The notes below the pieces were generated by a model that worked only from the letters and a program-made list of their open reading frames with translations, ran no database searches and was not told where the DNA came from. Made by a program: the position numbers and the translations under genes. From positions 210,001 through 242,000 of the forward strand of contig NC_010814.1 of NCBI RefSeq assembly GCF_000020385.1: a stretch of DNA of 32,000 bases, read 5' to 3'. Source of the stretch: Trichlorobacter lovleyi SZ. Its GTDB lineage: Bacteria; Desulfobacterota; Desulfuromonadia; Geobacterales; Pseudopelobacteraceae. Shown in pieces: positions 3,086 through 30,645 of the stretch. Positions within the stretch are counted from its first letter, which is position 1. Each line of letters opens with the position of its first letter.

Positions 3086-3346
3086 AAATTAGTCCTGATG
3101 TCAGGATAAAGAAGAAGGAATAATTTCACTCTCATCAGTAATCCGGCTATCCTTTCATGGGACCCGTGATTTTGCGCCATCAGGTCACCCTGATTTTGCT
3201 CTTTAAAGGGTGGTTATTTATTTCAGAACTACATTTTAAAAACATTTACGTCAAGTAAATTAAATATTGCCAAAAATGACTGTTTTTGCGATGTCAAGCT
3301 ACATTGCCATTAGCCTCCATCAACAGCTTTTTACGAATCACAATGA

Positions 3347-3547: not shown

Positions 3548-4746
3548 ATCTCGCCATTCGGGACATACGCTACCACCGGGGCAGGTTTATCCTGACCTCC
3601 ATCGGCCTTGGGCTGCTCCTCGGTGTGGTCATCAGCATGGGAGGCATCTACCGGGGACTTATCGCCGACGCCCTGGCGATACTACACGCGAATAAGGCCG
3701 ACATCTGGGTTGTGCAGCAGCATACCAACGGCCCGTTTGCCGAGAGTTCGCGCATCCCGGAAGACATCAAGTACCGCATACGGGCGGTGCCCGGTGTTGC
3801 TGAGGCATCCCCGCTTTCCTTCCAGACGGTCCAGATCGAGCGTCATGGCAAACCCTTCCGTTTTTTCCTGATGGGTTATGAATTGAGCGGTTTCGGCGGA
3901 CCGCCGGAGATAGTTGCCGGTCGCGGCATCCGCCAGAAGCACTACGAAATGGTAGCAGCCAGAGCGATGGGAATGCAGATCGGTGAAAAGATCCATCTGG
4001 GTCTCCATGATTACACGATCGTAGGATTAACCGGCAAGATTGTCTCTTCCAGCGGAGATCCGGTTGCCTATGTGAGTCTGGCCGACGCCCAGGATATTCA
4101 GTTCAAAAAGGACAACGACGCCATCAGGAACGACCGGGAAAGGATCGGAGCCAATCTGGCTAATATTCAAACTCTGTCTCCTGTCCAAGGAAAATACCTG
4201 CAGCAGAATATTTCAGCTATCACTGAATCAACGCACACGGTCAATACAGTCGTTGCGCGGCTGGCGCCGGGTGCGAACCTCCAGGAGGTGCAGGAGCGGA
4301 TCAGCCGTTGGAACCATTTCAAGCCGATTTCCGATTCAGAACAGACTGCCATCCTGGCTAAGGGAATGATTGAAAAAGCCAGGATGCAGTTGGGGCTTTT
4401 CCGGGTCATCCTCCTCGTTATCTCGGCCGTCATAATCTCCCTGATCATCTACACCTCGACCCTAGACAAGATCAAGGTCATCGCCACTCTGAAACTGATC
4501 GGCTCACCAAACCGAGTGATCATAGGCATGATCCTGCAGCAATCGCTGTTGATGGGCTTCATTGCGTATTTTATCGGCTACGGACTGATTTTGCTGACCT
4601 ATGAAAAATTTCCCCGGCGGATCGTCCTGGAGACTTTTGACATGCAGATGTTGTTTGTCATTGTCATGGCGATTTGCATCATTTCGAGTTTTGTGGGTAT
4701 CCGGAAGGCGCTCAAGGTTGAGCCGGGGGAGGCCCTGGGTGGATAA
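3544..4746 (+). CDS. ABC exporter permease, FtsX/MacB-DevC type
   Basis: 400 aa. The N-terminus is MNLAIRDIRYHRGRFILTSIGLGLLLGVV (TM1). A large periplasmic loop follows, then three C-terminal TM helices (FtsX-like). The gene sits immediately upstream of a MacB/LolD-type ATPase. Confidence 0.8.
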   Translation: MNLAIRDIRYHRGRFILTSIGLGLLLGVVISMGGIYRGLIADALAILHANKADIWVVQQHTNGPFAESSRIPEDIKYRIRAVPGVAEASPLSFQTVQIERHGKPFRFFLMGYELSGFGGPPEIVAGRGIRQKHYEMVAARAMGMQIGEKIHLGLHDYTIVGLTGKIVSSSGDPVAYVSLADAQDIQFKKDNDAIRNDRERIGANLANIQTLSPVQGKYLQQNISAITESTHTVNTVVARLAPGANLQEVQERISRWNHFKPISDSEQTAILAKGMIEKARMQLGLFRVILLVISAVIISLIIYTSTLDKIKVIATLKLIGSPNRVIIGMILQQSLLMGFIAYFIGYGLILLTYEKFPRRIVLETFDMQMLFVIVMAICIISSFVGIRKALKVEPGEALGG

Positions 4747-16477: not shown

Positions 16478-17179
16478 CTATCTTCGAGCTTTACCGCTAA
16501 TCCGGGCGATTTCGATTTTGAAGACCTTGGTAATCTTGTCTTTTTGCTCAATGTAGCGTTTGCCCTCTTCGATAAAGTCTGAACAGTATTTCTCCAACAG
16601 CCACAACAAAGCGTGATGTCTCTCGGCGCCATTCACTTCTGAAACTCGGCCAAAGACCACGGCACTTTCGTATTCGGTGCCAAACTTGTCTGGCAGAACC
16701 TTGGTCTTGCCAACCACGCAAAAAGAAACCTTTGCGTTGTGCTCGATATTTTCGAGTTTATGGCCGCTGATGGCACAGTGGAAATAGATTGATCCCTTGT
16801 GAACGTAACTCAACGGCACGCCATAGGGTTGCCCGTCGTTGCCTACCGTCGATAAAATCCCATATTCTGCGGTGTCGAGGATGTCAATTGATTCTTGTGG
16901 GGTTATCTCTCGGTCACTTCTCCGAACTTCCATCATTTGTTCTTCCTTTAGGGGAATAGACTGTCCTCCGTGTGAAGTAAGTACTATCCCGCGGGATGCC
17001 CCTGTTTTCTTGAGCCATCCTTTTTTTTCGAGAGCTTCGAGATGTCGATTCACCCCGGAAGGACTGCTGACACCAAGGTGAGCCGCGATGTCACGCACTG
17101 TCGGTGAGTATCCATGCGTCTGCGTAAAACGGGTAATGAAGTCCAAAACCATTTGTTGCCGTTCAGTAATGGCGATCAC
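16478..17179 (-). CDS. Fusion regulator: LexA-type winged-helix DNA-binding domain + pyridoxamine-5-phosphate-oxidase-like (Nim/Pyridox_ox_2-type) flavin-binding domain
   Basis: The N-terminus (V)[64 protein letters not shown] parallels the E. coli LexA DBD ([54 protein letters not shown]). The C-terminus [75 protein letters not shown] is a typical stand-alone PNPOx-family protein. No S24 peptidase domain or Ala-Gly cleavage site is present. GTG 17179 with GAGGAG 6 nt upstream is preferred. The track start TTG 17242 lies inside the -35 box. Confidence 0.7.
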
Positions 17180-17192
17180 TGTGTTCTCCTCG

Positions 17193-17216
17193 TATAGTGT
17201 ACACCTGTTCACTATA
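17193..17216. promoter_or_regulatory. Candidate operator (inverted repeat) in the divergent regulator / transfer-operon spacer
   Basis: TATAGTG-N10-CACTATA spans 17193-17216. It contains the perfect palindrome GTGTACAC (17197-17204). It also contains GTAC-N4-GTTC (17199-17210), one mismatch from the GAAC-N4-GTTC Cheo-type LexA box. The repeat overlaps the -10 box and the predicted transcription start. Confidence 0.4.
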
Positions 17217-17242
17217 TACTCTCGTTCATATCTTCTTGTCAA
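17213..17242 (-). promoter_or_regulatory. Candidate sigma70 promoter of the LexA-DBD fusion gene
   Basis: The minus strand reads TTGACA (17242-17237), an 18-nt spacer, then TATATA (17218-13), followed by the operator-like palindrome and GAGGAG-N6-GTG. Confidence 0.45.
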
Positions 17243-17289
17243 GACGGTGCCACCTTCCCCCCTACAAGATTATCAGTCAGGAGGAACGA

Positions 17290-17796
17290 ATGTGTCGATT
17301 ACCAGGCATCTGCCTGCTCATGATCAGCCTTGTCAGTTTGCCGATTCAGGCCAAAGCTTTCTGCTTCGAGGAGGCCGGGAGTCAATACGGCATATCGCCA
17401 CAGCTGCTCTGGAGCATTGCCAAGACGGAGAGCAACTTCAACCCCCGTGCGATCAATCGGAACAGTAACGGAACCTACGATTACGGTCTGATGCAGATCA
17501 ATTCAAGTTGGGCCAAGAGACTTGGCAAAACATGGAATGAACTGGGAGAGCCATGCACGAATGTAAAGGTGGGAGCCTGGGTGCTGGCCCAATGTATCCA
17601 GGATTATGGCTACACTTGGCGGGCTGTCGGTTGTTACAACTCGCGCACCCCGTCGAAGGGGGACCGATACGCCGGGAAAGTGTATCGCATCCTCGCTGAG
17701 CATACAAAGCCACAGGCGACGACGCTTATCGCAGCTATCAGCACACCTAGAATCGATTCACCATGGGATGAGGTGTTCGGCAATGCTGTCCGCTGA
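17290..17796 (+). CDS. Lytic transglycosylase (SLT domain), conjugation/T4SS-associated type
   Basis: Start at ATG 17290 (CAGGAGGA Shine-Dalgarno). Signal peptide [21 protein letters not shown]. The catalytic block is [28 protein letters not shown]. Confidence 0.85.
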
Positions 17797-18493
17797 TCTT
17801 CTCCACAAATACGGATTGCCGGAGGACGAGATTGTCGATGCTGTTGAATGCGCTGTGGCAAAGACACTGACGGCAGCTTTTCAGAGAACGGTTACTGTCC
17901 GGGCAGAGGGTGAACTGGAAATAATTGCCTATCCCAAGTTGGGACACCCGGTCGAAATGCAGTTGAAGGACATTCCCAAGAAGCTCCGCCGGCATATCAT
18001 TCACAGTGTCGAAGCGGAACTGCAAAAACGCCAGATCCTGCTGGAAGCAAAAAAACTGCAGGAACTTCAGGGGAGGGTTTTTTGTGGGGCTGTGGGGCGT
18101 ATCGGTTCCCGAGGGACATTGCACGTAACTCTGGAAATTGATGACTTACTTAAGCCTCTCATCCTGTTCGGAGAATGCCCATTACGTTATCAGCCGCCAC
18201 ATGAACGTTCCCGTTATCGCATAGGTGAGCAGCGCAGCTTCCTGGTGACGAGTGTGCGCCCCGTCATGGTGGGAGGCGACATTGCAAAGGTTCGACTCAT
18301 CCTGAACCGGACATCTCGTGTTTTGCCGGCTCTGCTGCTTCAGGACCTGACCGGTATTGCTGGGATCAAATGCCGACGGCGTATCGCAGGAGGGTTCAGT
18401 GAAGTTGTTACGCCGGTTCGGATACCAAAAAAATCGATTAATACAGTCGGAAAGGAGTTGAGGGAACATGTTCAAGTCCTCATCGCACCGTAG
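17783..18493 (+). CDS. NusA-like paralog (NTD + S1-like + one KH-like domain), truncated architecture
   Basis: By-eye alignment to E. coli Nus[25 protein letters not shown] parallels the NusA N-terminus. [12 protein letters not shown]...[62 protein letters not shown] parallels the S1 region through [51 protein letters not shown] parallels KH1. The start is ATG 17783 or 17768 and overlaps the SLT gene end. Confidence 0.5.
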
Positions 18494-19841
18494 CACCACC
18501 AACCCGGAATTCATGACCTCCATCGGTAACGGAGTCCAGATGGAACGACCGACCCGGATCGTTCCGATTTCGATCCCTGATGAATACCGAAAACGGCACA
18601 TGTTCGTATTTGGCACTACCGGGGTCGGCAAAACGCGACTCTGCGAGAACCTAATTGAGCAGGACATCATGAAAGGCAACAGCGTGGTCTACTTCGACCC
18701 CAAAGGTGACCAGCAGATCTTCACCAAGATTTTCGAGGTTGCCCGTAGGGCGGAGAGACTCAAGGATTTGATGCTGGTAACGCCGATTTTCCCGGAATAC
18801 TCAGCGGTCATCGATCCTATGGCCTATTACTTCATGCCGGACGAACTCGTCGGCCATATCGTCTCAGGCATCCAGGGCGGACGTGAACCATTCTACCGCA
18901 ACATTGCAAAGGAAATCACTACTGCCATCATCTCAGCCAACATCATCATCGCCGATTGGGAAAAACGTCTTCCCAAGCAAAATATGGATACTATCAGACA
19001 AAGCATTCGCCGCTCATCATTGAGCAGCACAATGGGGCTACTGCAAGAAATCAAGACACCCGAGGCGCTGCTAAACGCCGGCATGATCCAGGACATCCTT
19101 GAATCTCCCCAGGAGTATTATTCGAAGGTGTCTTCAACATTACGTACCTGCTTGATGGAGCTTTCCTCCGGGAACATCGGCAAGATTATCGGTCAGGCCG
19201 ACAGCAACCGCTTCATCAGCCGACTTGAACGAAAGAAAGGGGTCATCATGGTCGTGCACACCGGCACCATGATTACCAGGGAGGCAGCCACAACACTTGG
19301 CAAAGTCCTCTTGTCGATGATCCAGTCTTTCATCGGCAGGGTCTATCTCTCTGACAAACAGAAAGTATTCCCACCACTGTCCATCTACATAGATGAGGCC
19401 CAGAGCCTGTTCTACCAAGGTATTGAGGACCTTTTCGCCAAGGCTGGATCAGCAGACGTAATGGTGCACGCCTTCGCCCAGTCCGTGAACCAAATATATG
19501 CCGCCATTGGTGAGGAATACGGCAAATCGATCCTCGACAACACCAACACCAAGATCTTCATGCGCTGTTCTGATGCTGAAACATCCGAGTACGTCGTACG
19601 GCATTTCGGCGTGCGCAACGTGCTGACCGGCATTTTCGGGTCCAACCAGGTCACTACCCGTGAAGTGGAACAGGACATTTTGAAAGTGCAGGATATTCTG
19701 GGGCTGCAACCAAGGGAATTCTACATGCTGACCTACTCCGGTAGGTACAAGGGTGTGACTCGTGATGCCAGAGACCCGCAGTTGAAGATAGTCTTCCCGT
19801 CGGCGCCATCTTCCATAACCATGAGCAGAGGGGCCGCATGA
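18468..19841 (+). CDS. TraD/VirD4-type coupling-protein-like ATPase lacking transmembrane segments
   Basis: Walker A is FVFGTTGVGKT and Walker B is LSIYIDEAQ. The T4CP-like C-terminal block reads KIFMRCSDAETSEYVVRHFG. No hydrophobic N-terminal helices are present. Confidence 0.6.
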   Translation: MFKSSSHRSTTNPEFMTSIGNGVQMERPTRIVPISIPDEYRKRHMFVFGTTGVGKTRLCENLIEQDIMKGNSVVYFDPKGDQQIFTKIFEVARRAERLKDLMLVTPIFPEYSAVIDPMAYYFMPDELVGHIVSGIQGGREPFYRNIAKEITTAIISANIIIADWEKRLPKQNMDTIRQSIRRSSLSSTMGLLQEIKTPEALLNAGMIQDILESPQEYYSKVSSTLRTCLMELSSGNIGKIIGQADSNRFISRLERKKGVIMVVHTGTMITREAATTLGKVLLSMIQSFIGRVYLSDKQKVFPPLSIYIDEAQSLFYQGIEDLFAKAGSADVMVHAFAQSVNQIYAAIGEEYGKSILDNTNTKIFMRCSDAETSEYVVRHFGVRNVLTGIFGSNQVTTREVEQDILKVQDILGLQPREFYMLTYSGRYKGVTRDARDPQLKIVFPSAPSSITMSRGAA

Positions 19842-21304
19842 TAATCCTGCTCTACTTCTGTGGCGTTATCGGTTTCCTGATGGTCACTTACAACCTGTGG
19901 CGAATTTTAACCAGGCGTCCGGCTGAAGTAGAGCAAGAACCGTGGGTTCCACTGTCAATTTCGGAACTGGAACCGGATGATGACCTGCCATGCACTGATC
20001 TCGCCACGGTATCTTCAGTATGGACAGGCCGTGTTGTTCACTTCACTGATCTGTCTCGGCTCTGGCGTGAACCCACTCCTAAACAGGAAGAGGAAGCCGC
20101 ATTTCCAAGACCGACATTCCGGCATTCGGAGATTGAAGAGTTCTACAGGGACATTGTGGAACCGGAACCGCTTATCAATGGGAAGCGTAAGACTGTGATC
20201 GTCTATCTGCTTAAGATCCTCGACGCGGAAGGTACATGCCCCTCGGTTGTCGGAATCAAGAAATATGCAGCTGTCGGCAAGCAGATATCTGATCCGGATT
20301 CGGCGTACGGAGCAGCAGCTCTTGCCCAACTGGCTACCATACCGCTCTATCGGCATTCCCTGGGGGTTGCCCGCAAGTTCGTAGAAAAGAACTCTGAAAG
20401 AATCATGCTGCCTACGATCCTCATCGTGTCACTGGCGCATGACATCGGGAAAATTCCCTCTTTCCACAGCCAGTATTATTCGACTGCAGATCATCCGCAA
20501 ATAGCGCTCATCATACTTGCGAGCATTCCGGAATACGTTGCGTTGTCGAACAGGGATGAACTCGACAGCATCATCCGCAACCATCACCAGATAACGCCGA
20601 ACAATCCTCTCACGGCCTGTTTGAAACGGTGTGACCAGGAGTCTCGTAATGATGAGATGGGGTCTTTTCTTGGGCAAATGGCGCAGGTGAGGGCTTCCGA
20701 AGAAAGTTCGCTGCCAATAGCTGAGTCACTGCCACAACCTGATGTACCTGTCACTAAAGAAAAAATTTCGCAGGAATGGGATCACCCGCTCGGATCTCCA
20801 GAATCGGGAAAGTACGTTCCCCAGAAGATAAAGCTTCCTGCATGGTTCAATGCCGATACGATCCTTGGTGGCATCCACGGATTGATCAACCAGGTGGAGA
20901 AAACTTCGTCCGGAGTCAAGTGGCTGGCTGTTTCACTGCCGAACGGGTTGGTCTATGTGAAGCCAGAAGCACTTTGGCAGGTGATCCATCAAGTTAGCGA
21001 TGGCGATCCCATGATCTTGGTGGCTGATGCTGATGAAGAAACCAAACGTAATCTTCTCCATACTGTCGTCTGGGAACTGAGTGCCTCCAGAGATGCCATT
21101 GCCACGGAACTCATGACCAATGCTTACTACACAACGAATGCATCCATCGTGACGAATAACGATAAGTCATTCAACAAACTCCTGATCCCGTTCCGGGTCG
21201 ATGCCTTTGGTGTGCTCACCTCTGAACTGGAAAGCACCAAACCTCCGGTCTTGAGAAAAATAGTCAAGGACATCAGGCCGAAGCATGCGGAGGACAAAGA
21301 ATGA
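19838..21304 (+). CDS. Membrane-anchored HD-domain protein; possible MobH-type (TraI-like) relaxase
   Basis: N-terminal TM helix IILLYFCGVIGFLMVTYNLW. HD motifs are YRHSLGVARKF, LAHDIGKIP, ADHPQIA, RNHH and CDQESR. The C-terminal region (WLAVSLPNGLVYVKPEALWQV) is reminiscent of the C-terminal domain of HD-type conjugative relaxases. The position after a T4CP-like gene fits that reading. Confidence 0.45.
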   Translation: MIILLYFCGVIGFLMVTYNLWRILTRRPAEVEQEPWVPLSISELEPDDDLPCTDLATVSSVWTGRVVHFTDLSRLWREPTPKQEEEAAFPRPTFRHSEIEEFYRDIVEPEPLINGKRKTVIVYLLKILDAEGTCPSVVGIKKYAAVGKQISDPDSAYGAAALAQLATIPLYRHSLGVARKFVEKNSERIMLPTILIVSLAHDIGKIPSFHSQYYSTADHPQIALIILASIPEYVALSNRDELDSIIRNHHQITPNNPLTACLKRCDQESRNDEMGSFLGQMAQVRASEESSLPIAESLPQPDVPVTKEKISQEWDHPLGSPESGKYVPQKIKLPAWFNADTILGGIHGLINQVEKTSSGVKWLAVSLPNGLVYVKPEALWQVIHQVSDGDPMILVADADEETKRNLLHTVVWELSASRDAIATELMTNAYYTTNASIVTNNDKSFNKLLIPFRVDAFGVLTSELESTKPPVLRKIVKDIRPKHAEDKE

Positions 21305-23681: not shown

Positions 23682-24083
23682 ATGGCAGACAAGACTAACA
23701 AGGCGGATAAGGGTAACAGCACCCCTCCTGCTTCCAAGAAAGTCGACTGGCAGGCTAGAAAGCTGGAGAATGCGAAACGGGACGATACAAGTGTTGTTTT
23801 CTGTCGCGCTCGTGATACCGGCGACTTCATCAACATTCTCAACTCAAACGATAATCTCGTCTACCAGATGCGGATGAACATGGGGAGGAGGGAGTCCCTG
23901 ACATTTGAGGTAGTGAAGAGCTACATCGACCGGAGCCGGCGAATTAAGGAAGAACTAAATCTCATGAATGCCGAAATGTGCCAGTTGCTCGACTACACGT
24001 ACAAGCCGCCACGGGGATTCGATAACCCTCTCAAAAAGCAGGATAAGCAGGCAGTCCCTGGGGTAGAAACCGGCAAGAAATGA
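23682..24083 (+). CDS. Hypothetical 133-aa basic protein
   Basis: ORF with a GGGAGGA Shine-Dalgarno. No family was recognised. It is the last cistron before the non-coding region. Confidence 0.55.
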   Translation: MADKTNKADKGNSTPPASKKVDWQARKLENAKRDDTSVVFCRARDTGDFINILNSNDNLVYQMRMNMGRRESLTFEVVKSYIDRSRRIKEELNLMNAEMCQLLDYTYKPPRGFDNPLKKQDKQAVPGVETGKK

Positions 24084-24141
24084 TTACTCTGTTTCAGTCG
24101 AACCGGGACGATGCCAAATGGGTCGTCCCGGGTGAATCCTC

Positions 24142-24470
24142 TTGACTTGTAAGAGGAATATCGATAGCGTTTCAGTATTATAGACTCTTTCAAGAGACTC
24201 CGTGCGGCCTTTGAGCCCCGGATAGACTTTTTCGGATAGCCCGAAGAAGAAATGCCCCCGGCAGGGATGAACTACCTGGAAAGACAAGGCCGCAGTTGCC
24301 CCTTTCCGGATGACACCAGGAACGGCTTATGCCTTCCTCGATCAGTCGTATGGGTAATGCGACTTGAATCCAATCTGAAGGTGCGCCCATCAATGTAGCG
24401 CGTGCCTCTGATAACCAATAATCACGAAGAACAGTGACCTATTCTGGCAATGGCCGGAGTGGGTTTTTTG
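24142..24470 (+). ncRNA. Candidate structured non-coding transcript (alternatively oriT or a single-strand promoter region)
   Basis: TTGACT (24142-47), a 17-nt spacer, then TAGCGT (24165-70). At least five local hairpins follow. Examples: CTTTTTCGG/CCGAAGAAG at 24227-24249; GGAAAG/CTTTCC at about 24277-24307; AGGAA(C)GGC/GCCTTCCT at about 24318-24339. A terminal hairpin TCTGGC-aatg-GCCGGA (24443-58) is followed by TTTTTT (24464-69). No convincing ORF lies on either strand. Confidence 0.3.
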
Positions 24471-24528
24471 TTGTTCAAAATCCGCGACAAGCTTTGTAAG
24501 CGGCGGATACTTTCACCACATCCCGACC

Positions 24529-24601
24529 GGGAGACATTTTGTTCTCTCCCTACGGGACAGACATCTGTCTCTTTGCTTCGGGAAAACCACAAGGAGGCAG
24601 T
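24529..24601 (+). promoter_or_regulatory. Two-hairpin leader module A (upstream of ssb)
   Basis: GGGAGA-N10-TCTCCC at 24529-24550. Palindrome GACAGA-ca-TCTGTC at 24556-24569. Proximal stem CTCTTTG/CAAGGAG (24569-75 with 24590-96) pairs the Shine-Dalgarno. Confidence 0.45.
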
Positions 24602-25021
24602 ATGGCAAGTTTGAACCGCGTAGAACTCATCGGCAACCTGGGTCGTGATCCTGAAATCAGGTACACACCAGGAGGCACCGCTGTCGCAAGTTTTTCACTC
24701 GCGACCAGTGAAAAGGTAAAAACCAAAAGTGGCGAATGGGAGGTCCGGACCGAGTGGCACAACATCGTCCTATACGCACGTCTCGCAGAAGTAGCTGGCG
24801 AGTATCTGTCGAAAGGAAAAAGTGTTTATCTCGACGGCAAACTCAAGACCCGCAAATGGCAAGATCGGGACGGTAAAGATCGCTACACAACCGAAATCAT
24901 CGGCGACAAGCTTCTTATGCTGGGTAGTAAAAATGGCAGCATTCCTGACGGGAGTGACGATCAGCCATCAAATAGCCAGGCACATGAGGACATTCCGCAC
25001 GATGACACCGATCCGTTCTAA
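24602..25021 (+). CDS. ssb: Single-stranded DNA-binding protein
   Basis: [37 protein letters not shown]...[48 protein letters not shown] is the OB fold. The acidic tip is DDTDPF. Start at ATG 24602 with an AAGGAGG Shine-Dalgarno. Confidence 0.92.
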
Positions 25022-25051
25022 CAACCAGTAACCACAACTCAACAGTCCTAC

Positions 25052-25131
25052 GGGGAAACATTACCAAGTCCCCAAAGGGATTGGTCTGTCTTCTCTGTCG
25101 GACACAACCCACAGAAAAGGAGACAGACAGA
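25052..25131 (+). promoter_or_regulatory. Two-hairpin leader module B
   Basis: GGGGA-N12-TCCCC at 25052-25073. Proximal stem TCTGTCT+TCTC (25085-95) pairs with GAGA-c-AGACAGA (25120-31). It covers AAGGAG and the first base of the ATG. Confidence 0.5.
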
Positions 25132-26087
25132 TGAACGCACCAGCTCAAATCATTCCCATCAACCCCGCAGCATCATCCCTCACTCACCACGCTGTCAACA
25201 TCAGTGAACTGAAGGCCCAGGTAAACCTGATTCAATACGTCATGCGTGACGTCATGAAATCAGGCGAGCACTACGGCACCATTCCCGGTTGCGGAGACAA
25301 AGCAGTTCTTCTCAAACCGGGCGCCGAAAAGCTCATGCTCACCTTCAGACTGGCAAACGACGTGGATGTGGAAACCATCGACCTGCATCTCGGCCATCGG
25401 GAGTATCGCATCAAGGTGACGCTCTACTCACCGGCAGGCCAGCGTCTCGGTACAGGTGTCGGTTCATGTTCGACCATGGAAAGCAAGTATCGTTTCCGTG
25501 TCGGGCCAGTTGAACTGACGAATAAGCCGGTACCGAGGGAGTACTGGGATCTTCGCAAGGAGAACCCGGCATTGGCTCAGGAGATCATTGGTGGACGCGG
25601 CTTCAGCGCAAAAAAGGATGACAGCTGCAACTGGAAAATCGCTCGCCAGGGAGAAAAGGTCGAGCACGATAATCCGGCAGATTTTTATAACACGTGTCTC
25701 AAGATGGCCAAGAAGCGGGGATTAGTGGATGCAGTACTCACCTCAACCGCCGCCTCGGACATCTTCACCCAAGACATCGAGGAAGATCCTGACCTTTATG
25801 GACAGACGGAACACAACGGGGGAAACAGTGCCGGCACTACCAGCACTACCTCCGGGACTTCGCAGGGTCACAAACCGGACAGCACCCCATCATCCCACGG
25901 AGCCGGACCAGTTTCGACTTCCGAGATCATCGGGTATCTGACGGCTAAGGGAATCAGAATGGAACTCTCCGCAGATGAATCGGAGATCTCCGCCTTCCCG
26001 GACTTCAACGACACCTCAGCCCGCCAATGGCTGAAAGATCACGGTTTCAAATGGGACGGCAAGGGCAAATGCTGGCAGTACCGGTAG
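25131..26087 (+). CDS. Hypothetical 318-aa protein; possible single-strand annealing (Rad52/ERF-like) protein with Ser/Thr-rich linker and C-terminal GFKW mini-domain
   Basis: Coding status is clear. The function is weakly supported by synteny, since the gene lies between ssb and a Cas4-like nuclease. A KMAKKRGLVDAVLTSTAASDIFTQDIEED segment resembles the conserved C-terminal helix of annealases. The C-terminus reads WLKDHGFKWDGKGKCWQYR. Confidence 0.35.
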   Translation: MNAPAQIIPINPAASSLTHHAVNISELKAQVNLIQYVMRDVMKSGEHYGTIPGCGDKAVLLKPGAEKLMLTFRLANDVDVETIDLHLGHREYRIKVTLYSPAGQRLGTGVGSCSTMESKYRFRVGPVELTNKPVPREYWDLRKENPALAQEIIGGRGFSAKKDDSCNWKIARQGEKVEHDNPADFYNTCLKMAKKRGLVDAVLTSTAASDIFTQDIEEDPDLYGQTEHNGGNSAGTTSTTSGTSQGHKPDSTPSSHGAGPVSTSEIIGYLTAKGIRMELSADESEISAFPDFNDTSARQWLKDHGFKWDGKGKCWQYR

Positions 26088-26132
26088 CACCTGACGTTAC
26101 AGACTGAACCTCACTCACAACCAACCTCAGCA

Positions 26133-26211
26133 GGGAGACAACGACTTTCTCCCTACCGGGGGTGTCTTGTCTCCTCTGCCGGGTACAACCCACAGATAAG
26201 GAGACAAGATC
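26133..26211 (+). promoter_or_regulatory. Two-hairpin leader module C
   Basis: GGGAGA-N9-TCTCCC at 26133-26153. A perfect 11-bp stem TCTTGTCTCCT (26165-75) / AGGAGACAAGA (26199-209) sequesters the Shine-Dalgarno. The loop shares ACAACCCACAGA with module B. Confidence 0.55.
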
Positions 26212-26376
26212 ATGACTACCCACATCATCAAACACGTAACAATCAAAGGCTGTCAGATACCGGTCTATGCGCCCGTTAAGGAGCGACAGATCAGCATCGA
26301 TGTCACCAGAATCATTGCCGGCGTTATTTTCGGTTCCCTGCTCACCGCAGTCGGAACCCTGCCGTTTCTGATTTGA
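26212..26376 (+). CDS. Small 54-aa protein with C-terminal TM helix (hypothetical)
   Basis: Manually found: MTTHIIKHVTIKGCQIPVYAPVKERQISIDVTRIIAGVIFGSLLTAVGTLPFLI. It is preceded by AAGGAGACA and followed 12 nt later by the next gene with the same AAGGAGACAG Shine-Dalgarno word. Confidence 0.5.
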   Translation: MTTHIIKHVTIKGCQIPVYAPVKERQISIDVTRIIAGVIFGSLLTAVGTLPFLI

Positions 26377-26388
26377 AAGGAGACAGCC

Positions 26389-27363
26389 ATGAGCAAACTC
26401 GCTGCATTTCTGGGACGGGCTATACCGACCCATCAAAAGAAACAATCATCACATCTTGGTGACCGAACTGTGTACGTCGGAGCCTCCGACATTGCCGGCT
26501 GCCCACGTAAAGCGGCTCTCGGCAAACAATGCCCGTCCAGTCACGACATCTCGACACTCCTGCGCTTTTCCCGTGGCCATGCTGCGCAAGCCATGTATGC
26601 CGAGTTCTTCAAGACTGGCGGCGCCCTCTTCGAGGAAGAAGTCGAAGTACGTCACACGGACATCCCTGAAATCAGGTGTCACATTGACTTTCTGTTCTAT
26701 GCGAACCGGCAGACTAAAAGGCTGCACATCGTGGAGATGAAGTCGACCGATGGCATCCCCGATGAACCTTACGCATCCTGGGTGGATCAGCTGCATGTCC
26801 AGATGGGCCTGCTGCAACTCACCCTCGATCCGGAAGTGCAAATCGGCGGATCAATTCTAGTGGTTGACCTCAATGCTGGAACATACCGGGAATTCAATAA
26901 CTATGCACCCAACAAGCTGGTGTTTAATCAGCTTATGGAAAAAGCTCAGCACATCCTTTCGGCAACGCGAGGCGAGTGTGCACCTAAAACGGAACCAGGC
27001 ATTCTCTGCGGTTATTGCACGTTTCGCCAGGATTGCCCTTCGCATGTGGCTGATATGGAACTTCCTCCGGAAATCCATCAAGCCAGCAAAGCATACCTGG
27101 AATTGAACGAGCAGAAAAAAGCTCTCGACACTCGTCTGGAAGTTCTGAAAAACGACATCCTCACTTTTGTGAATGGTGCGTATAAAGGGGCTTCGGACGG
27201 TATCCTTGTTAATGTCACATCAGTGTCAGACTCGGTAATCGTCGACGGCAAGAAGCTGAAGAACTCGTATCCGGATATCTATGATCAAGTCACGAAACCG
27301 AAATCTGGCTTTCTGAAGCTTGAAATCAAACCATTCATGCCGCTCGCAGCACAGGCGGCCTGA
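26389..27363 (+). CDS. PD-(D/E)XK nuclease, Cas4/RecB-like with four-Cys cluster
   Basis: An N-terminal Cys lies in SDIAGCPRKAAL. The catalytic motif is HIDFLF...LHIVEMKS (D...ExK). The C-terminal cluster is CGYCTFRQDCPSH (C-x2-C-x5-C). Confidence 0.75.
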   Translation: MSKLAAFLGRAIPTHQKKQSSHLGDRTVYVGASDIAGCPRKAALGKQCPSSHDISTLLRFSRGHAAQAMYAEFFKTGGALFEEEVEVRHTDIPEIRCHIDFLFYANRQTKRLHIVEMKSTDGIPDEPYASWVDQLHVQMGLLQLTLDPEVQIGGSILVVDLNAGTYREFNNYAPNKLVFNQLMEKAQHILSATRGECAPKTEPGILCGYCTFRQDCPSHVADMELPPEIHQASKAYLELNEQKKALDTRLEVLKNDILTFVNGAYKGASDGILVNVTSVSDSVIVDGKKLKNSYPDIYDQVTKPKSGFLKLEIKPFMPLAAQAA

Positions 27364-27376
27364 TCCAACCCCACAA

Positions 27377-27447
27377 GGGGGCGTTACGCTCCCCATGGGA
27401 AATCTCCATTCTTGGAGGCGTGCGCCCCCATTGAAAGGAGATTCCTG
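27377..27447 (+). promoter_or_regulatory. Two-hairpin leader module D
   Basis: GGGGGCG-tta-CGCTCCC within 27377-27394. Proximal stem GGAAATCTCC (27398-407) / GGAGATTCC (27437-45) sequesters the Shine-Dalgarno. An alternative pairing exists between GGGGGCG (27377-83) and CGCCCCC (27422-28). Confidence 0.45.
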
Positions 27448-27648
27448 ATGAAAATCTATCGTACCGGCACGTTGCCCCCTGACCTTAAATCCTTCTCCTG
27501 TGAGAAAAGGCATGAAGACCTGAAAGAGGTCCTGCATGCCATTGTCTCACTGTTGCTCATCGCGGCGATGTTTTTCATGTTCATGATTGCCGCAGCAGCA
27601 CCTGAACCCCAGGTTTATCCTGTGGGGTGGGAGGAGGTGCGAGGATGA
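27448..27648 (+). CDS. Small membrane protein (66 aa, hypothetical)
   Basis: Start at ATG 27448 after AAAGGAG. The central helix is AIVSLLLIAAMFFMFMIAAAA. The stop overlaps the next ATG. Confidence 0.5.
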   Translation: MKIYRTGTLPPDLKSFSCEKRHEDLKEVLHAIVSLLLIAAMFFMFMIAAAAPEPQVYPVGWEEVRG

Positions 27649-27914
27649 CGGAGCCAACCATTGCCATCTATACGGAAGAGGAGACTGGCCCGTCTGATGC
27701 TGCTGTGAATGAGGTCAACCTCTCGTTGCACGGAGCCAACCGGGTTCTGGAACGTGACATCCCTCTGGAAGCTCTCGAAGGTGTTCGTCATCTTCTGCCT
27801 CTCCTCAACACGAAACCACTCAAATTCAGGTACAAGGGGGTTTTCGTCGTGGCCCGCCTGGTAAATGGTTCACCAAGAATCATCACCGCCTGGCGCCTAC
27901 TTCCCCCCTCGTAG
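27645..27914 (+). CDS. Hypothetical 89-aa protein
   Basis: ATGA overlap at 27645-27648 with a GGAGGAGG Shine-Dalgarno upstream. No family was recognised. Confidence 0.5.
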   Translation: MTEPTIAIYTEEETGPSDAAVNEVNLSLHGANRVLERDIPLEALEGVRHLLPLLNTKPLKFRYKGVFVVARLVNGSPRIITAWRLLPPS

Positions 27915-28013
27915 ATGTCTTAGTAGGACAGCGAAATTAACCATCACCCTTGGCGGGATGCATGACATCTCCGCAAAGGAGAGGTATCCCGTCGTCAATA
28001 CAAGGAGGCATCC

Positions 28014-28427
28014 ATGAGTCCTAAAATTCCACGACCCAAGGCTGTTCCCGGCTTCACCATCGAACGCCGGTCTGCCTGCGGGAAAATTTACACTACTGTC
28101 ACCCTGTCCCCGACAACAGCTGCACCAATGGAAGTCTTCATACGCTTCGGCAAGGCCGGAGGTTGTGGTTCTGCCATGGCCGATGGTATCGCTCGCCTGG
28201 TCTCCTACGGTCTCCGTTCGGGACTGGAGCCAACCGATGCGTTCAAGGCTCTCACCGGCATAGGTTGTCATCTCGGGGCCAATACCTGCCTCAATTGCGT
28301 TGCCGAATCCATAGGCATCGTTTTGGAGCATCTGAAAACAGGGCGTGATCTCAACGACCTCATCGAGGAAGCTGACTTCGCGGCAATTAACCAAATCGGA
28401 CAAGGAGCTGATCACCATGAAATATAG
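28014..28427 (+). CDS. Stand-alone TSCPD-domain protein
   Basis: The Cys-containing blocks ACGKIYTTV, EVFIRFGKAGGCGSAMADGIARLVS, GIGC and NTCLNCVAESIG match the TSCPD domain. That domain is otherwise found at the C-terminus of class II ribonucleotide reductases (by recollection). Confidence 0.65.
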   Translation: MSPKIPRPKAVPGFTIERRSACGKIYTTVTLSPTTAAPMEVFIRFGKAGGCGSAMADGIARLVSYGLRSGLEPTDAFKALTGIGCHLGANTCLNCVAESIGIVLEHLKTGRDLNDLIEEADFAAINQIGQGADHHEI

Positions 28428-29340
28428 CATCAAGGACATATTCAATATTCCTGTGAAAGAGAGTCTCTGCGTGGAAGGTCGGCCTCAGTCCGACAACCCA
28501 TTTATCCCTGAAGTTGACAGCGACTATGTGTTCAGGAAGGAAATCCTGTCGGATGTACTTTCCTGGTACATGATGGGCGCCAACGACGGCCTGTACCTGA
28601 CCGGTCCGACCGGCAGCGGCAAGTCTTCGATTGTCTTGCAGACCGCTGCCCGGCTCAATATTCCGGTCATGGTCGTCACAGGGCACAGCAGACTCGAAAC
28701 CCCGGAACTTGTGGGGCATCACGTAATCGTCAACAACTCGATGGAGTACGTCTACGGACCGCTCGCCATGGCCATGAAAGAAGGTCACTGGTTCCTGCTG
28801 GACGAGATCGACTTGCTCGATCCCGCCACTGCAGCAGGTTTGAACGGCATCGTAGAAGGAAGACCCCTCACCATTCCGGAAAAGGGTGGTGAAGTCATCA
28901 AGCCGGCACCGGGCTTTCGCTTCATTGCGACAGCCAACACCGCCGGCAGCGGTGATCGCTCAGGTCTCTATCAAGGGACTTTACGGCAGAACGGCGCATT
29001 TCTGGATCGTTTCTGGATGGTTGAAGTCGACTATCCTGACGAAGTCCAGGAAAGACAGATTCTGGCCAAAGCCATGCCCAGCCTGGCTGATACGGTCAGG
29101 GAAGCACTGGTATCCTACGCCAACGAAATCCGCAAACTCTTCATCAAAGGGGAAATAGAAGTCACCTTCTCCACCAGAACCCTCGTCAGATGGGCGAAGC
29201 TTGTGTATCTCTTCCGCCCGGCATCTGCTGAAGGGAAAAACCCGATCATCCATGCTCTTGATCGTGCTCTCGGGTACCGAGCAGAGCCGGAAAGCCGCGA
29301 GGCGTTGCACGAACTGGCGCAACGCGTCTTCGGCGGATAG
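28417..29340 (+). CDS. CobS-like / MoxR-type AAA+ ATPase
   Basis: Start at ATG 28417. Walker A is LTGPTGSGKSS and Walker B is FLLDEIDL. The segment FRFIATANTAGSGDRSGLYQGTLRQNGAFLDRFWMVEVDYPDEVQERQIL closely follows the aerobic cobaltochelatase CobS pattern. Confidence 0.85.
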   Translation: MKYSIKDIFNIPVKESLCVEGRPQSDNPFIPEVDSDYVFRKEILSDVLSWYMMGANDGLYLTGPTGSGKSSIVLQTAARLNIPVMVVTGHSRLETPELVGHHVIVNNSMEYVYGPLAMAMKEGHWFLLDEIDLLDPATAAGLNGIVEGRPLTIPEKGGEVIKPAPGFRFIATANTAGSGDRSGLYQGTLRQNGAFLDRFWMVEVDYPDEVQERQILAKAMPSLADTVREALVSYANEIRKLFIKGEIEVTFSTRTLVRWAKLVYLFRPASAEGKNPIIHALDRALGYRAEPESREALHELAQRVFGG

Positions 29341-29350
29341 GGGGTGCTAC

Positions 29351-29683
29351 ATGGCATTACGACAGCATCTCCATCTCCAATGCAACACTACGGCTGGCGG
29401 CAAGTTCTGGATCGCCCAGATTCATGACGATCCGCCGCGGGTTACGGTCAATTGGGGGCCTACGCGCAGCCAGGGGCAGACGAAGTCTTATGACGTCAAC
29501 TCAATGTCCGAGGCATTCACGTTCGTTTCCAAGAAGAAGAAGGAAAAGCTGGCCAAAGGGTACTACGAAGTTGCTTCATCGCCGCCTCGTGAACCTGTCC
29601 AGCCAACACCCCGGAAACAGACAGACAAAACAATCATGAAGGATCTCATGTCCGGTGCAAACACCAAGGACTGGTTCTTCTAA
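29351..29683 (+). CDS. WGR-domain-like small protein
   Basis: GGKFWIAQIHDDPPRVTVNWGPTRSQGQTKSYDVNSMSEAFTFVSKKKKEKLAKGYYEV follows the WGR pattern (KFY..., WGRIG..GQ, ...K..KGY) with WGP replacing WGR. Start at ATG 29351. Confidence 0.6.
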   Translation: MALRQHLHLQCNTTAGGKFWIAQIHDDPPRVTVNWGPTRSQGQTKSYDVNSMSEAFTFVSKKKKEKLAKGYYEVASSPPREPVQPTPRKQTDKTIMKDLMSGANTKDWFF

Positions 29684-29693
29684 CGCCCTTCAG

Positions 29694-29760
29694 GGGAGGC
29701 CTTCTCCCTGTTGGGGGCCTCCCTTGATCACACCATCATACTGATCAAAGGAGAAAGAAC
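29694..29760 (+). promoter_or_regulatory. Two-hairpin leader module F
   Basis: GGGAGGCC-N14-GGCCTCCC at 29694-29723. TTGATCA-N11-TGATCAA (29724-29748) abuts the AAGGAG Shine-Dalgarno at 29748-53. Confidence 0.4.
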
Positions 29761-30645
29761 ATGAACGAAATACTTTCAAAGCTGGTAGTTGTGTCCCTGT
29801 CCATTTCACTCTGGACTGGCCGGAAGAAACTCTCGCCGGAAGACCTTGGGCTCGACTTTTCCAAACTCCCTCCCGAAAAACTGGCCACGCTCGGTAGCAA
29901 GAAGATCTGCGACCCGGAGAAACTTGCCGTATTCAGCGCCCTGAAGCGTCGTGCCGAACGGCAGTGTGAAGCGGTAGGAGTCAGATTCCTCGGTGGCTAT
30001 GCCATACCGGAGGATAAGGCCGACGAGGTGATGAAGATCCTCGACGGTGTTCGGGATGAGTTTGAGAAGGAGAAGCAGGAATTTTTGTCGGAGTACGACC
30101 GCAGTCTGAGGGAATGGATTGATGCGAACCCCGAATGGGCAGCCATCATCGAAAAAGGCGTAGAACCAGCGTCAACAGCGGCACGCCGTCTGGGCTTCGC
30201 AGTCCAGGCGTTCAAGGTCAAGAACATCGACGGACTGGACAAGGGGCTGAACGAACATGCCAGTACCCTGTCAGAACGGCTGATCTTTGAAATCAATCAA
30301 CAAGCCAGGCAAGCCTGGGAGGAGTCGTACAAGGGACGCCCTTCTGTAACCCGGAAAGCGCTACGCCCGATCAAGTCCATGCTCGACAAACTGCGTGGTC
30401 TTGAGTTCCTTTCTCCCTACCTGCTCACTCTGGCAGTACAGGTTGAAGACGTGTTGGCCTCATTACCAAAAAGCGGTCCCATCGAAGGACGGAATCTCAC
30501 CTCACTTATCGGGATATTGCATGTCCTCGGCGATTTGCCGCTGGATGAAGTCCCGGCAGAGGAAGAAGAGGATGTTGTTGAAAACATCCTTCCCGAGACC
30601 AGAACCGCTGAGCCGGTAAGCCTGCCCAGCGAATGGTTCTTTTAG
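29761..30645 (+). CDS. DUF3150-like protein
   Basis: The N-terminus KLVVVSLSISLWTGRKKLSPEDLG...LPPEKLATLGSKKICDPEKLAVFSALKRRAERQCEAVGVRFLGGYAIPE matches my recollection of DUF3150 proteins, which accompany CobS/CobT-like pairs on plasmids and ICEs. Confidence 0.55.
   Translation: MNEILSKLVVVSLSISLWTGRKKLSPEDLGLDFSKLPPEKLATLGSKKICDPEKLAVFSALKRRAERQCEAVGVRFLGGYAIPEDKADEVMKILDGVRDEFEKEKQEFLSEYDRSLREWIDANPEWAAIIEKGVEPASTAARRLGFAVQAFKVKNIDGLDKGLNEHASTLSERLIFEINQQARQAWEESYKGRPSVTRKALRPIKSMLDKLRGLEFLSPYLLTLAVQVEDVLASLPKSGPIEGRNLTSLIGILHVLGDLPLDEVPAEEEEDVVENILPETRTAEPVSLPSEWFF

Follow-up and report, generated by a model that had tools for sequence, protein, structure and literature searches.

Paralogous leader cassettes with a predicted Shine-Dalgarno-masking fold in the ssb operon of a Desulfuromonadales conjugative element

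The stretch of DNA treated here, referred to as the window, comprises 32,000 nucleotides (nt) of the genome of Trichlorobacter lovleyi SZ (contig NC_010814.1, positions 210,001 to 242,000, forward strand), and its right half is an integrative/conjugative element (ICE) of Desulfuromonadales, as judged by gene content and by close relatives. Within this element, most genes of an operon that begins with ssb are preceded by copies of one structured leader. The leaders lie on the sense strand, are anchored at the start codon and are conserved among relatives, and their favoured fold is predicted to bury the Shine-Dalgarno (SD) sequence.

The ssb operon and its leaders

Close relatives of the element are found in Trichlorobacter, Geomobilimonas and Geobacter genomes as well as in metagenome-assembled genomes of Desulfuromonadales; near-identical elements are present in three cultured strains, namely Trichlorobacter thiogenes ATCC BAA-34, Geomobilimonas luticola JCM 17780 and Geobacter hydrogenophilus DSM 13691. 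About 520 nt of non-coding DNA separate the transfer genes from the co-directional gene row that starts with ssb. The first-pass annotation of the window, made from the letters alone, had spoken of early genes, which was an assumption; the setting is a conjugative-element operon beside type IV secretion system genes, not a phage early region. The genes, and the two hairpins in front of the row, are as follows.

18468-19841, type IV coupling protein (transfer gene)
19838-21304, HD-domain protein (transfer gene)
upstream of the ssb operon, TraF and TraH (transfer genes)
24436-24475 (+), terminator-like hairpin of 13 pairs, followed by a T-run
24480-24508 (+), extra hairpin ATCCGC..GCGGAT, directly after the terminator hairpin and upstream of leader A
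start 24602, ssb
25131-26087, 318-amino acid protein of a very large family without a Pfam model
start 26212, 54-amino acid membrane protein
start 26389, PD-(D/E)XK/Cas4-like nuclease
start 27448, 66-amino acid protein
27645-27914, 89-amino acid protein
start 28014, TSCPD gene
start 28417, AAA_5/CbbQ_C ATPase
start 29351, WGR gene
start 29761, DUF3150 gene
start 30655, CobT-like vWA protein

Each leader is a module of 75-95 nt that ends at the start codon and has the layout c1-[G1..c2]-G2-c3-apical stem-G3(SD)-ATG. In the distal domain, a GGGAG-like arm, G1 (GGGAGACA-like), pairs with the CTCCC-like arm c2, and this hairpin is closed by an outer stem formed from the C-rich c1 and the G-run G2. 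The proximal hairpin is formed by 8-12 bp between the pyrimidine tract c3 (TGTCTCC-like) and G3, the latter composed of the SD and the SD-to-AUG spacer; a small apical stem, in many cases GGGT-ACA-ACCC, tops the c3:G3 helix. G1 itself resembles the SD and can be regarded as an SD mimic. Ahead of the modules, the spacer sequence is rich in C and A and lacks structure. The members in the window are listed below, with scores from the broader of the two covariance models described in the next section.

24517-24604 (+), module A, ssb leader (29.9 bits, E 8.5e-6); c1 24521-24525, G1 24529-24534, c2 24545-24550, G2 24553-24557, c3 (anti-SD) CTGTCTCTTTG 24565-24575, G3 (SD region) CAAGGAGGCAG 24590-24600, ATG 24602
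25041-25133 (+), module B, leader of the 318-amino acid gene (93.4 bits); c1 25043-25049, G1 25052-25056, c2 25069-25073, G2 25077-25083, c3 25084-25098, SD arm 25111-25128, ATG 25131
26121-26214 (+), module C, leader of the 54-amino acid gene (98.9 bits); c1 26125-26128, G1 26133-26138, c2 26148-26153, G2 26158-26161, c3 26165-26175 and SD arm 26199-26209 forming a perfect 11-bp helix, apical stem GGGT-ACA-ACCC, ATG 26212
26377-26388 (+), 12-nt spacer before the nuclease gene, with the same extended SD (AAGGAGACA) and no module
27372-27450 (+), module D, leader of the 66-amino acid gene, divergent member (13.8 bits, E 0.086); outer stem CCCA:TGGG, hairpin GGGGGC:GCTCCC, AATCTCC paired with GGAGATT (SD); the apical domain is larger and competes for CTCC
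27943-28016 (+), spacer F, before the TSCPD gene, marginal or degenerate relative (12.4 bits, E 0.19)
29682-29763 (+), module E, DUF3150 leader (19.6 bits, E 0.003); outer stem GCCC:GGGG, hairpin GGGGAG:CTCCC, CTCC and TTGATCA paired with TGATCAA and GGAG (SD), alternative G1:c3 pairing GGGAGGCC:GGCCTCCC

The hairpin arms given in the first-pass annotation were all recovered at their positions, with the single exception that the hairpin at 27377 ends at 27393 and not at 27394. Its two-hairpin layout was sound as far as the hairpins go; the outer stem c1:G2 that encloses each distal hairpin had been missed. What had been taken for the distal hairpin of module E, GGGAGGCC..GGCCTCCC, is the alternative G1:c3 pairing and not the ground-state distal hairpin.

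The window genes without a module (26389, 27645, 28417, 29351 and 30655) overlap or nearly abut the preceding gene, and some of them carry their own module in relatives. The nuclease gene, for instance, is tightly coupled to the 54-amino acid gene in the window and has its own module in L021 and L023 (related loci bear L numbers here). At the upstream end, the hairpin at 24436-24475 is probably where the traF-traH transcript ends and the ssb operon region begins. The hairpin that follows it shows compensatory C>T/G>A changes in L019 and L021-L025, as read directly from the alignment; the stretch from this second hairpin to module A yielded no sigma-70-like promoter. Intrinsic termination was rejected as a role of the leaders, as there is no T-run of four or more in spacers B-F and the only convincing site is that at 24436-24475, upstream of module A.

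One leader family and its spread

When a first covariance model, trained on homologues of B and C only, was run on the window, A scored 18.9 bits (E 0.003) and E 15.1 bits (E 0.03). The second, broader model was based on 74 training matches, among which there was no A, D, E or F sequence of the window's lineage. In a search of both strands of the 32 kb, its six best matches were C, B, A, E, D and F, in this order, all on the plus strand and all ending at the ATG of a gene; these are the very six spacers that had been picked out in the first-pass annotation. From these matches, A, B, C and E are counted as members of the family, with D as a divergent and F as a marginal case. The proposal that the spacers hold paralogous cis-elements, and not random structure, is upheld for those before 24602, 25131, 26212 and 29761, which are copies of one module; for the spacers before 27448 and 28014 it stands in a weakened form, with D and F as weaker relatives only.

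Folding of the spacers as RNA against dinucleotide shuffles gave z-scores of -3.0 (A), -4.2 (B), -4.05 (C), -3.97 (D) and -2.78 (E). Spacer F, which had been put forward as a weaker case, reaches only -2.0 and is a marginal member at best; in L017 and L018 it is swapped for an unrelated short spacer. The word ACAACCCACAGA(A/T)AAGGAGACA, said to be common to B and C, is present in both. Recurrence of GAGACA-type words had also been noted, and GGAGACA does occur eight times in the window, six of them within 24530-26385; the window-wide count itself is not significant.

Among 79 related loci (778 kb), the B/C model yielded 122 matches at E <= 1, of which 119 are on the gene (+) strand, and 116 of these 119 end on the ATG or TTG of an open reading frame (ORF). 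All 74 matches with E <= 5e-4 are on the gene strand. The genes downstream comprise those for ssb, the 318-, 54- and 66-amino acid proteins, the nuclease, the AAA ATPase, DUF3150 and vWA proteins, and several unrelated ORFs. In L021, L023, L028, L077 and L142, an operon holds four to eight copies; L021, L077 and L028 (Desulforegulaceae, 40% GC), all of them more distant elements, have seven or eight within 6-7 kb, and the metagenome contig L142 has six. A scan of metagenome and viral contigs with the pattern GGGAGAC..CTCCC..TGTCTCC returned nearly exclusively chance matches, the real ones being L142 and a duplicate of L018 only. In Rfam, nothing was found for 24300-30000 at the gathering threshold or at E <= 10 save two chance-level matches, and nothing over the modules in L018, L021, L024, L028, L077 and L142.

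Repeats of this kind could in principle be selfish or neutral sequences, such as repetitive extragenic palindromes (REP) or miniature inverted-repeat transposable elements (MITE), or recombination-junction linkers between gene cassettes, and would then have no regulatory role. The gene content between modules does vary in relatives, where extra ORFs of 147, 144 and 232 amino acids occur, each with a module, and similarity to relatives breaks at spacers, around 27893-28000 and 28372. Yet the modules have a strict orientation with the 3' end fixed at the ATG, are under strong purifying selection over their whole length and have helices maintained by compensatory changes (both detailed below), and no copies were found outside the operon, be it in the window or, save one related element, in 604 kb of unrelated contigs. 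An explanation without regulatory function is thus considered very improbable. Integron attC sites in particular were rejected, as the core site GTTRRRY is missing from all six spacers and the modules are positioned by the 5' end of the gene that follows.

At the two breaks just mentioned, the DNA similarity to most relatives falls from ~86% to 78-83% and then to ~67%, and mosaic junctions therefore coincide with spacers or gene ends. In those relatives, the AAA gene is equipped with a module of its own, whereas the window copy and the TSCPD gene overlap. Group II intron domains (Rfam RF02012, RF00029, RF02001) were detected in L024 (6617-9229) and L142 (8735-8910), and the intron of L024 splits the homologue of the 318-amino acid gene after residue 190. 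The 318-amino acid protein itself has more than 7000 matches at E <= 1e-5 in many phyla and no Pfam or NCBIfam model, its sole match being phrog_10048 (unknown function); its position between ssb and the PD-(D/E)XK nuclease suggests a possible role in recombination.

Some further features of the surroundings may be mentioned. Between a 133-amino acid ORF and the terminator, ~350 nt of non-coding DNA (24084-24435) are ~80% conserved in relatives, beat shuffles when folded as DNA (z -3.4) and contain a perfect 9-bp inverted repeat, CCGGGACGA/TCGTCCCGG, at 24103-24131; the origin of transfer (oriT), a small RNA (sRNA) or the operon promoter could be sited here. Just before the transfer genes, at 16478-17242 (-), a LexA-type DNA-binding domain is fused to a pyridoxamine-5'-phosphate-oxidase-like domain, an unusual combination; the protein is a possible regulator of the element. 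Outside the conjugative element, a c-di-GMP-I (cyclic di-GMP) riboswitch aptamer lies at 3134-3210 (-) (55.8 bits, E 1.6e-8), upstream, on the minus strand, of an FGE-sulfatase-like gene at 2089-2919.

The predicted masked fold and a possible second, open fold

Conservation of the modules was followed in alignments of the spacers from about 20 homologous loci of 84-98% DNA identity. Modules A-C have identities to the window of 0.956-0.970 and are near-invariant, directly next to a variable upstream part of the spacer (0.87); the corresponding values are 0.83-0.85 for third codon positions of the flanking genes and 0.97-0.98 for codon positions 1 and 2. Coding is excluded as the reason, since single-base insertions and deletions occur within the modules. 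Homologous elements display the conservation and, in the alignment treated below, the compensatory stem changes that had been named as a check in the first-pass annotation.

Of 21 seed variants, 20 have the masked ground state as their minimum-energy fold, and so do 34 of 38 representatives. At 37 C, the predicted probability that the SD is unpaired is at most 0.005 for A, B and C, and amounts to 0.05 for E and 0.27 for F. For D, whose SD is only partly masked by this measure (0.23), the minimum-energy fold of the single sequence does not mask the SD, and the canonical layout is found in the consensus fold of 15 homologues.

Covariation was examined in a model-derived alignment of 66 distinct modules. 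The ground-state pairs are formed in 92.7% of cells, as against 44-61% with slid partners, and changes on both sides are seen in 20 of the 25 pairs. The covariation score of 0.371, compared with 0.177 in shuffles, was reached by none of 500 shuffles. Two individual modules may illustrate how the arms change together: in the L077 module before a 62-amino acid ORF, the arms CGGTGTTCCC/GGGAGACACCG replace TCTTGTCTCCT/AGGAGACAAGA, and in the DUF3150 leader of L018 they read GATATCTCCTT/AAGGAGATATC. Since the alignments behind these pair counts were fitted to the structure of the model, and the numbers lean towards that structure, an alignment-light test was added, in which the duplex energies of segments from the same module were compared by permutation with those of segments from different modules, using 38 representatives below 75% identity. 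The c3:G3 duplex has -14.5 kcal/mol within and -10.1 kcal/mol between modules, and the G1:c2 duplex -9.7 and -8.6 kcal/mol, respectively (both p < 2e-4). The control pairings c2:G2, G2:c3 and c2:G3 show no within-module excess in this test.

A second fold, in which the SD is exposed, may also have been selected. In the RNAalifold consensus of the seed alignment, G1 is paired with c3 and the SD is free, which is not the ground state. In most modules no other SD-free structure is better than this G1:c3 fold, and in 4 of 38 it is the minimum-energy fold. Its helix is 85.8% paired, compared with 55-71% when slid; within modules, the G1:c3 duplex reaches -13.6 against -10.4 kcal/mol between modules, and the duplex of the distal loop with the G2-c3 linker -1.95 against -1.08 kcal/mol (both p < 2e-4). 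Among the paralogues of L028, the alternative is a continuous hairpin of 15-20 bp with up to six G.U pairs in 20, and differing distal loops are matched by differing linkers, which argues for selection on the second fold in gene-sense RNA. When the nascent RNA is taken to end after c3, the G1:c3 fold is the minimum-energy structure in 28 of 38 modules, and the barriers between the two folds are put at 19-28 kcal/mol by findpath, a heuristic that follows a direct path. On these predictions, the second state is plausible but not established.

The length of the predicted duplexes has a bearing on a different view, according to which the modules are intercistronic processing or stability signals, i.e., RNase III or RNase E sites or end-protecting hairpins, and SD masking is secondary or relieved by cleavage. 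Repeated, paralogous and stable hairpins placed exactly between cistrons, with C/A-rich unstructured stretches upstream of them, would suit such a role, and so would the 15-20 bp of near-continuous duplex in the alternative fold. The ground-state helices, however, measure only 10-12 bp in the proximal hairpin, to which 3-5 bp and the apical stem are added, and are interrupted by internal loops; moreover, processing leaves unexplained why the proximal helix tracks the SD and the SD-to-AUG spacer by compensatory changes and why the module ends precisely at the ATG. Processing as the primary function is therefore held to be improbable.

It has been proposed, in the first-pass annotation, that the hairpins act in the transferred single strand of DNA, as entry promoters or as priming signals, to which replication roadblocks may be added; the promoters would be of the Frpo/ssp type. 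The cargo would fit, as ssb and its neighbours are typical of leading regions, plasmids carry repeated single-stranded DNA promoters upstream of ssb and psiB (PMC13478746), and any inverted repeat also folds in single-stranded DNA. Against this stands the absence of -35/-10-like hexamers from both strands of 24000-30000, as well as the build of the modules, which are short and consist of two or three short helices instead of one long hairpin. A transcript started downstream would be devoid of the SD and of the bases next to the ATG, all of which are part of the structure; the position of the modules is tied to start codons. In addition, the helices make use of G.U pairs in the mRNA sense (82 among 998 pairs in total, and 6 of the 20 pairs of one alternative helix), and these would turn into C.A mismatches in the template strand. 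The single-strand proposal is accordingly disfavoured and has hardly any weight left. Its counterpart in the same annotation, conditional masking of ribosome-binding sites in mRNA, is supported by the gene-strand position, the end at the start codon, the covarying masking helix and the predicted pairing of the SD.

A probable translational gate, its possible triggers and known systems

Summarizing, the modules are best explained as paralogous cis-acting leader cassettes in a polycistronic operon mRNA, which would mask the SD, keep translation off by default and possibly exist in two states; this explanation is given a probability of about 0.6. In the ground state, c3 would pair with the SD and bury the ribosome-binding site, and each translational unit of the operon would be repressed or translated at a very low level by default. 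In the putative second state, the SD mimic G1 would capture c3 and the distal loop would pair with the G2-c3 linker, giving one long hairpin and an exposed SD. The cassettes may in this way serve as two-state gates. What flips them could be either a trans-acting factor shared by all, such as a protein, an sRNA, a helicase or a nuclease, or the order of folding during transcription, and one signal could then set the translation of the whole operon.

A number of points weigh against this explanation. Every structure reported here is a prediction. A buried SD is also predicted for 4 of 13 other SD-bearing genes of the window (P < 0.02), the paralogue groups amount to few independent events, and the comparison of plus and minus strands folded as RNA (-35.8 and -34.2 kcal/mol, p 0.067) is not decisive alone. 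As to the second fold, its energy exceeds that of the ground state by 4-11 kcal/mol in most modules (median 5.5); the evidence for this fold is mostly conserved sequence, with both-side changes confined to four pairs and six cells, and its signal follows partly from the resemblance of G1 to the SD/G3. Ordered co-transcriptional folding could also bypass the second fold and lead straight to the masked state. Finally, no trigger was found among the upstream stop, a leader peptide and RNA-binding proteins.

Several candidate triggers were looked at individually. A terminating upstream ribosome was rejected as a general trigger, the distance from stop to c1 being -1 to 222 nt (median 25). A leader peptide was dropped as well, the TTG-initiated frame through module A being broken by 1-nt insertions and deletions in relatives. 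As for a separate sRNA with a GGAGACA or TGTCTCC seed, none was found in the window outside the modules, save a coding-region match at 25293 and one match at 4175.

The modules may be translational operators, i.e., platforms for one dedicated RNA-binding protein of the element or the host that locks or opens the SD hairpin, by recognition of the conserved apical GGGU-ACA-ACCC hairpin or of the CAACCC/c1 region. If many copies answered to a single factor, the presence of the same leader before unrelated genes would be accounted for. Loops and unpaired stretches are conserved too, as exemplified by the invariant distal loop CAACGACTT of module C; the word ACAACCC occurs at both c1 and the apical stem, and whole modules are near-invariant. 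On the other side, distal loops differ between paralogues and no RNA-binding protein was identified. A NusA-like S1/KH protein encoded some 7 kb upstream had been named as the element-encoded candidate; searches of the ORFs at 17088-18493 with Pfam, NCBIfam, PHROGs and PDB sequences revealed no S1, KH or NusA-like domain, and this trans-factor was discarded. The named candidate is unsupported. The operator explanation, for a protein of the element or of the host, is tentative and, on balance, less likely than not. It is compatible with a masked, off-by-default leader, differs from it only in the trigger and would be the most likely form that a trigger takes.

Most operons with modules also encode the 89-amino acid protein (27645-27914 in the window), which was therefore considered as a candidate trans-factor. 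Its 120 homologues are without exception hypothetical proteins, all from Geobacter and Desulfuromonadales relatives. It was assigned to no family and gave no fold match in the PDB (best E 1.4), which counts against it as the operator protein, and the candidate led no further. The AlphaFold model is of mediocre quality (predicted local distance difference test, pLDDT, 68.8); the C-terminal half is confidently predicted as a helix and a three-stranded sheet.

If the cassettes gate translation, the ICE would control an operon of ssb, recombination and AAA/vWA genes post-transcriptionally and gene by gene with one reusable RNA part, a layer of control for which no description for ICEs was found in the literature searched. 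A conserved, structured multi-copy RNA motif that is absent from Rfam would be added, and with it a natural, portable off-by-default leader with a built-in SD mimic, akin in design to engineered toehold-type switches. A bolder version, in which all units share the bistable leader and a single event (an RNA-binding factor, an sRNA, a helicase, or folding kinetics after induction or host entry) switches all of them, is conceivable, the odds being against it; it would amount to modular, copy-and-paste post-transcriptional control, which would be new for conjugative elements. If the cassettes merely fine-tune expression or stabilize the mRNA, they would enlarge the range of known leader structures only modestly.

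SD masking and two-state leaders as such are already well known. In SD-sequestering leaders, i.e., translational riboswitches and RNA thermometers (ROSE, fourU), a pyrimidine-rich anti-SD pairs with the SD just upstream of the start codon and a competing upstream segment can capture the anti-SD, as predicted for the modules. In contrast to riboswitches, the modules have no aptamer-like multi-helix junction with a conserved unpaired core; in contrast to thermometers, their stems of 10-12 bp are predicted to be far too stable at 37 C; and, different from both, the cassette is reused four to eight times within one operon, before unrelated genes. The maturation-gene leader of MS2 and the hok mRNA of hok/sok have an equilibrium fold in which the SD is buried by an upstream complement and an alternative fold in which it is free. 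Two such folds with large barriers are also predicted for the modules, whereas their nascent open form is favoured only thermodynamically; unlike hok/sok, they are multi-copy and have neither 3'-processing nor an antisense partner.

Among the early genes of T7, repeated RNase III sites lie between cistrons and are not built around the SD and AUG. The modules share with these sites the succession of paralogous hairpins between cistrons on DNA that enters a new cell, but include the SD and AUG and have short ground-state helices. Coat-protein operators of phages (MS2/PP7 replicase) are control points in the form of a hairpin with the ribosome-binding region; this region of the downstream gene is likewise contained in the module hairpin, which is, however, far longer and has a second domain beside it. 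Frpo1/2 and ssp2, finally, are leading-region promoters consisting of long single hairpins with -35 and -10 boxes that act on the transferred template strand (PMC13478746). They resemble the modules as repeated structured elements upstream of ssb-type genes of a conjugative element; the modules differ in being short and mRNA-sense, in including the SD and in lacking -35/-10 boxes. No SD-mimic leader cassette reused four to eight times before unrelated genes of one conjugative-element operon, and no description of this particular motif, was found in Rfam or the literature searched. From this comparison, the leader cassette appears to be an undescribed RNA motif, composed of well-known principles, that probably functions as a translational gate.

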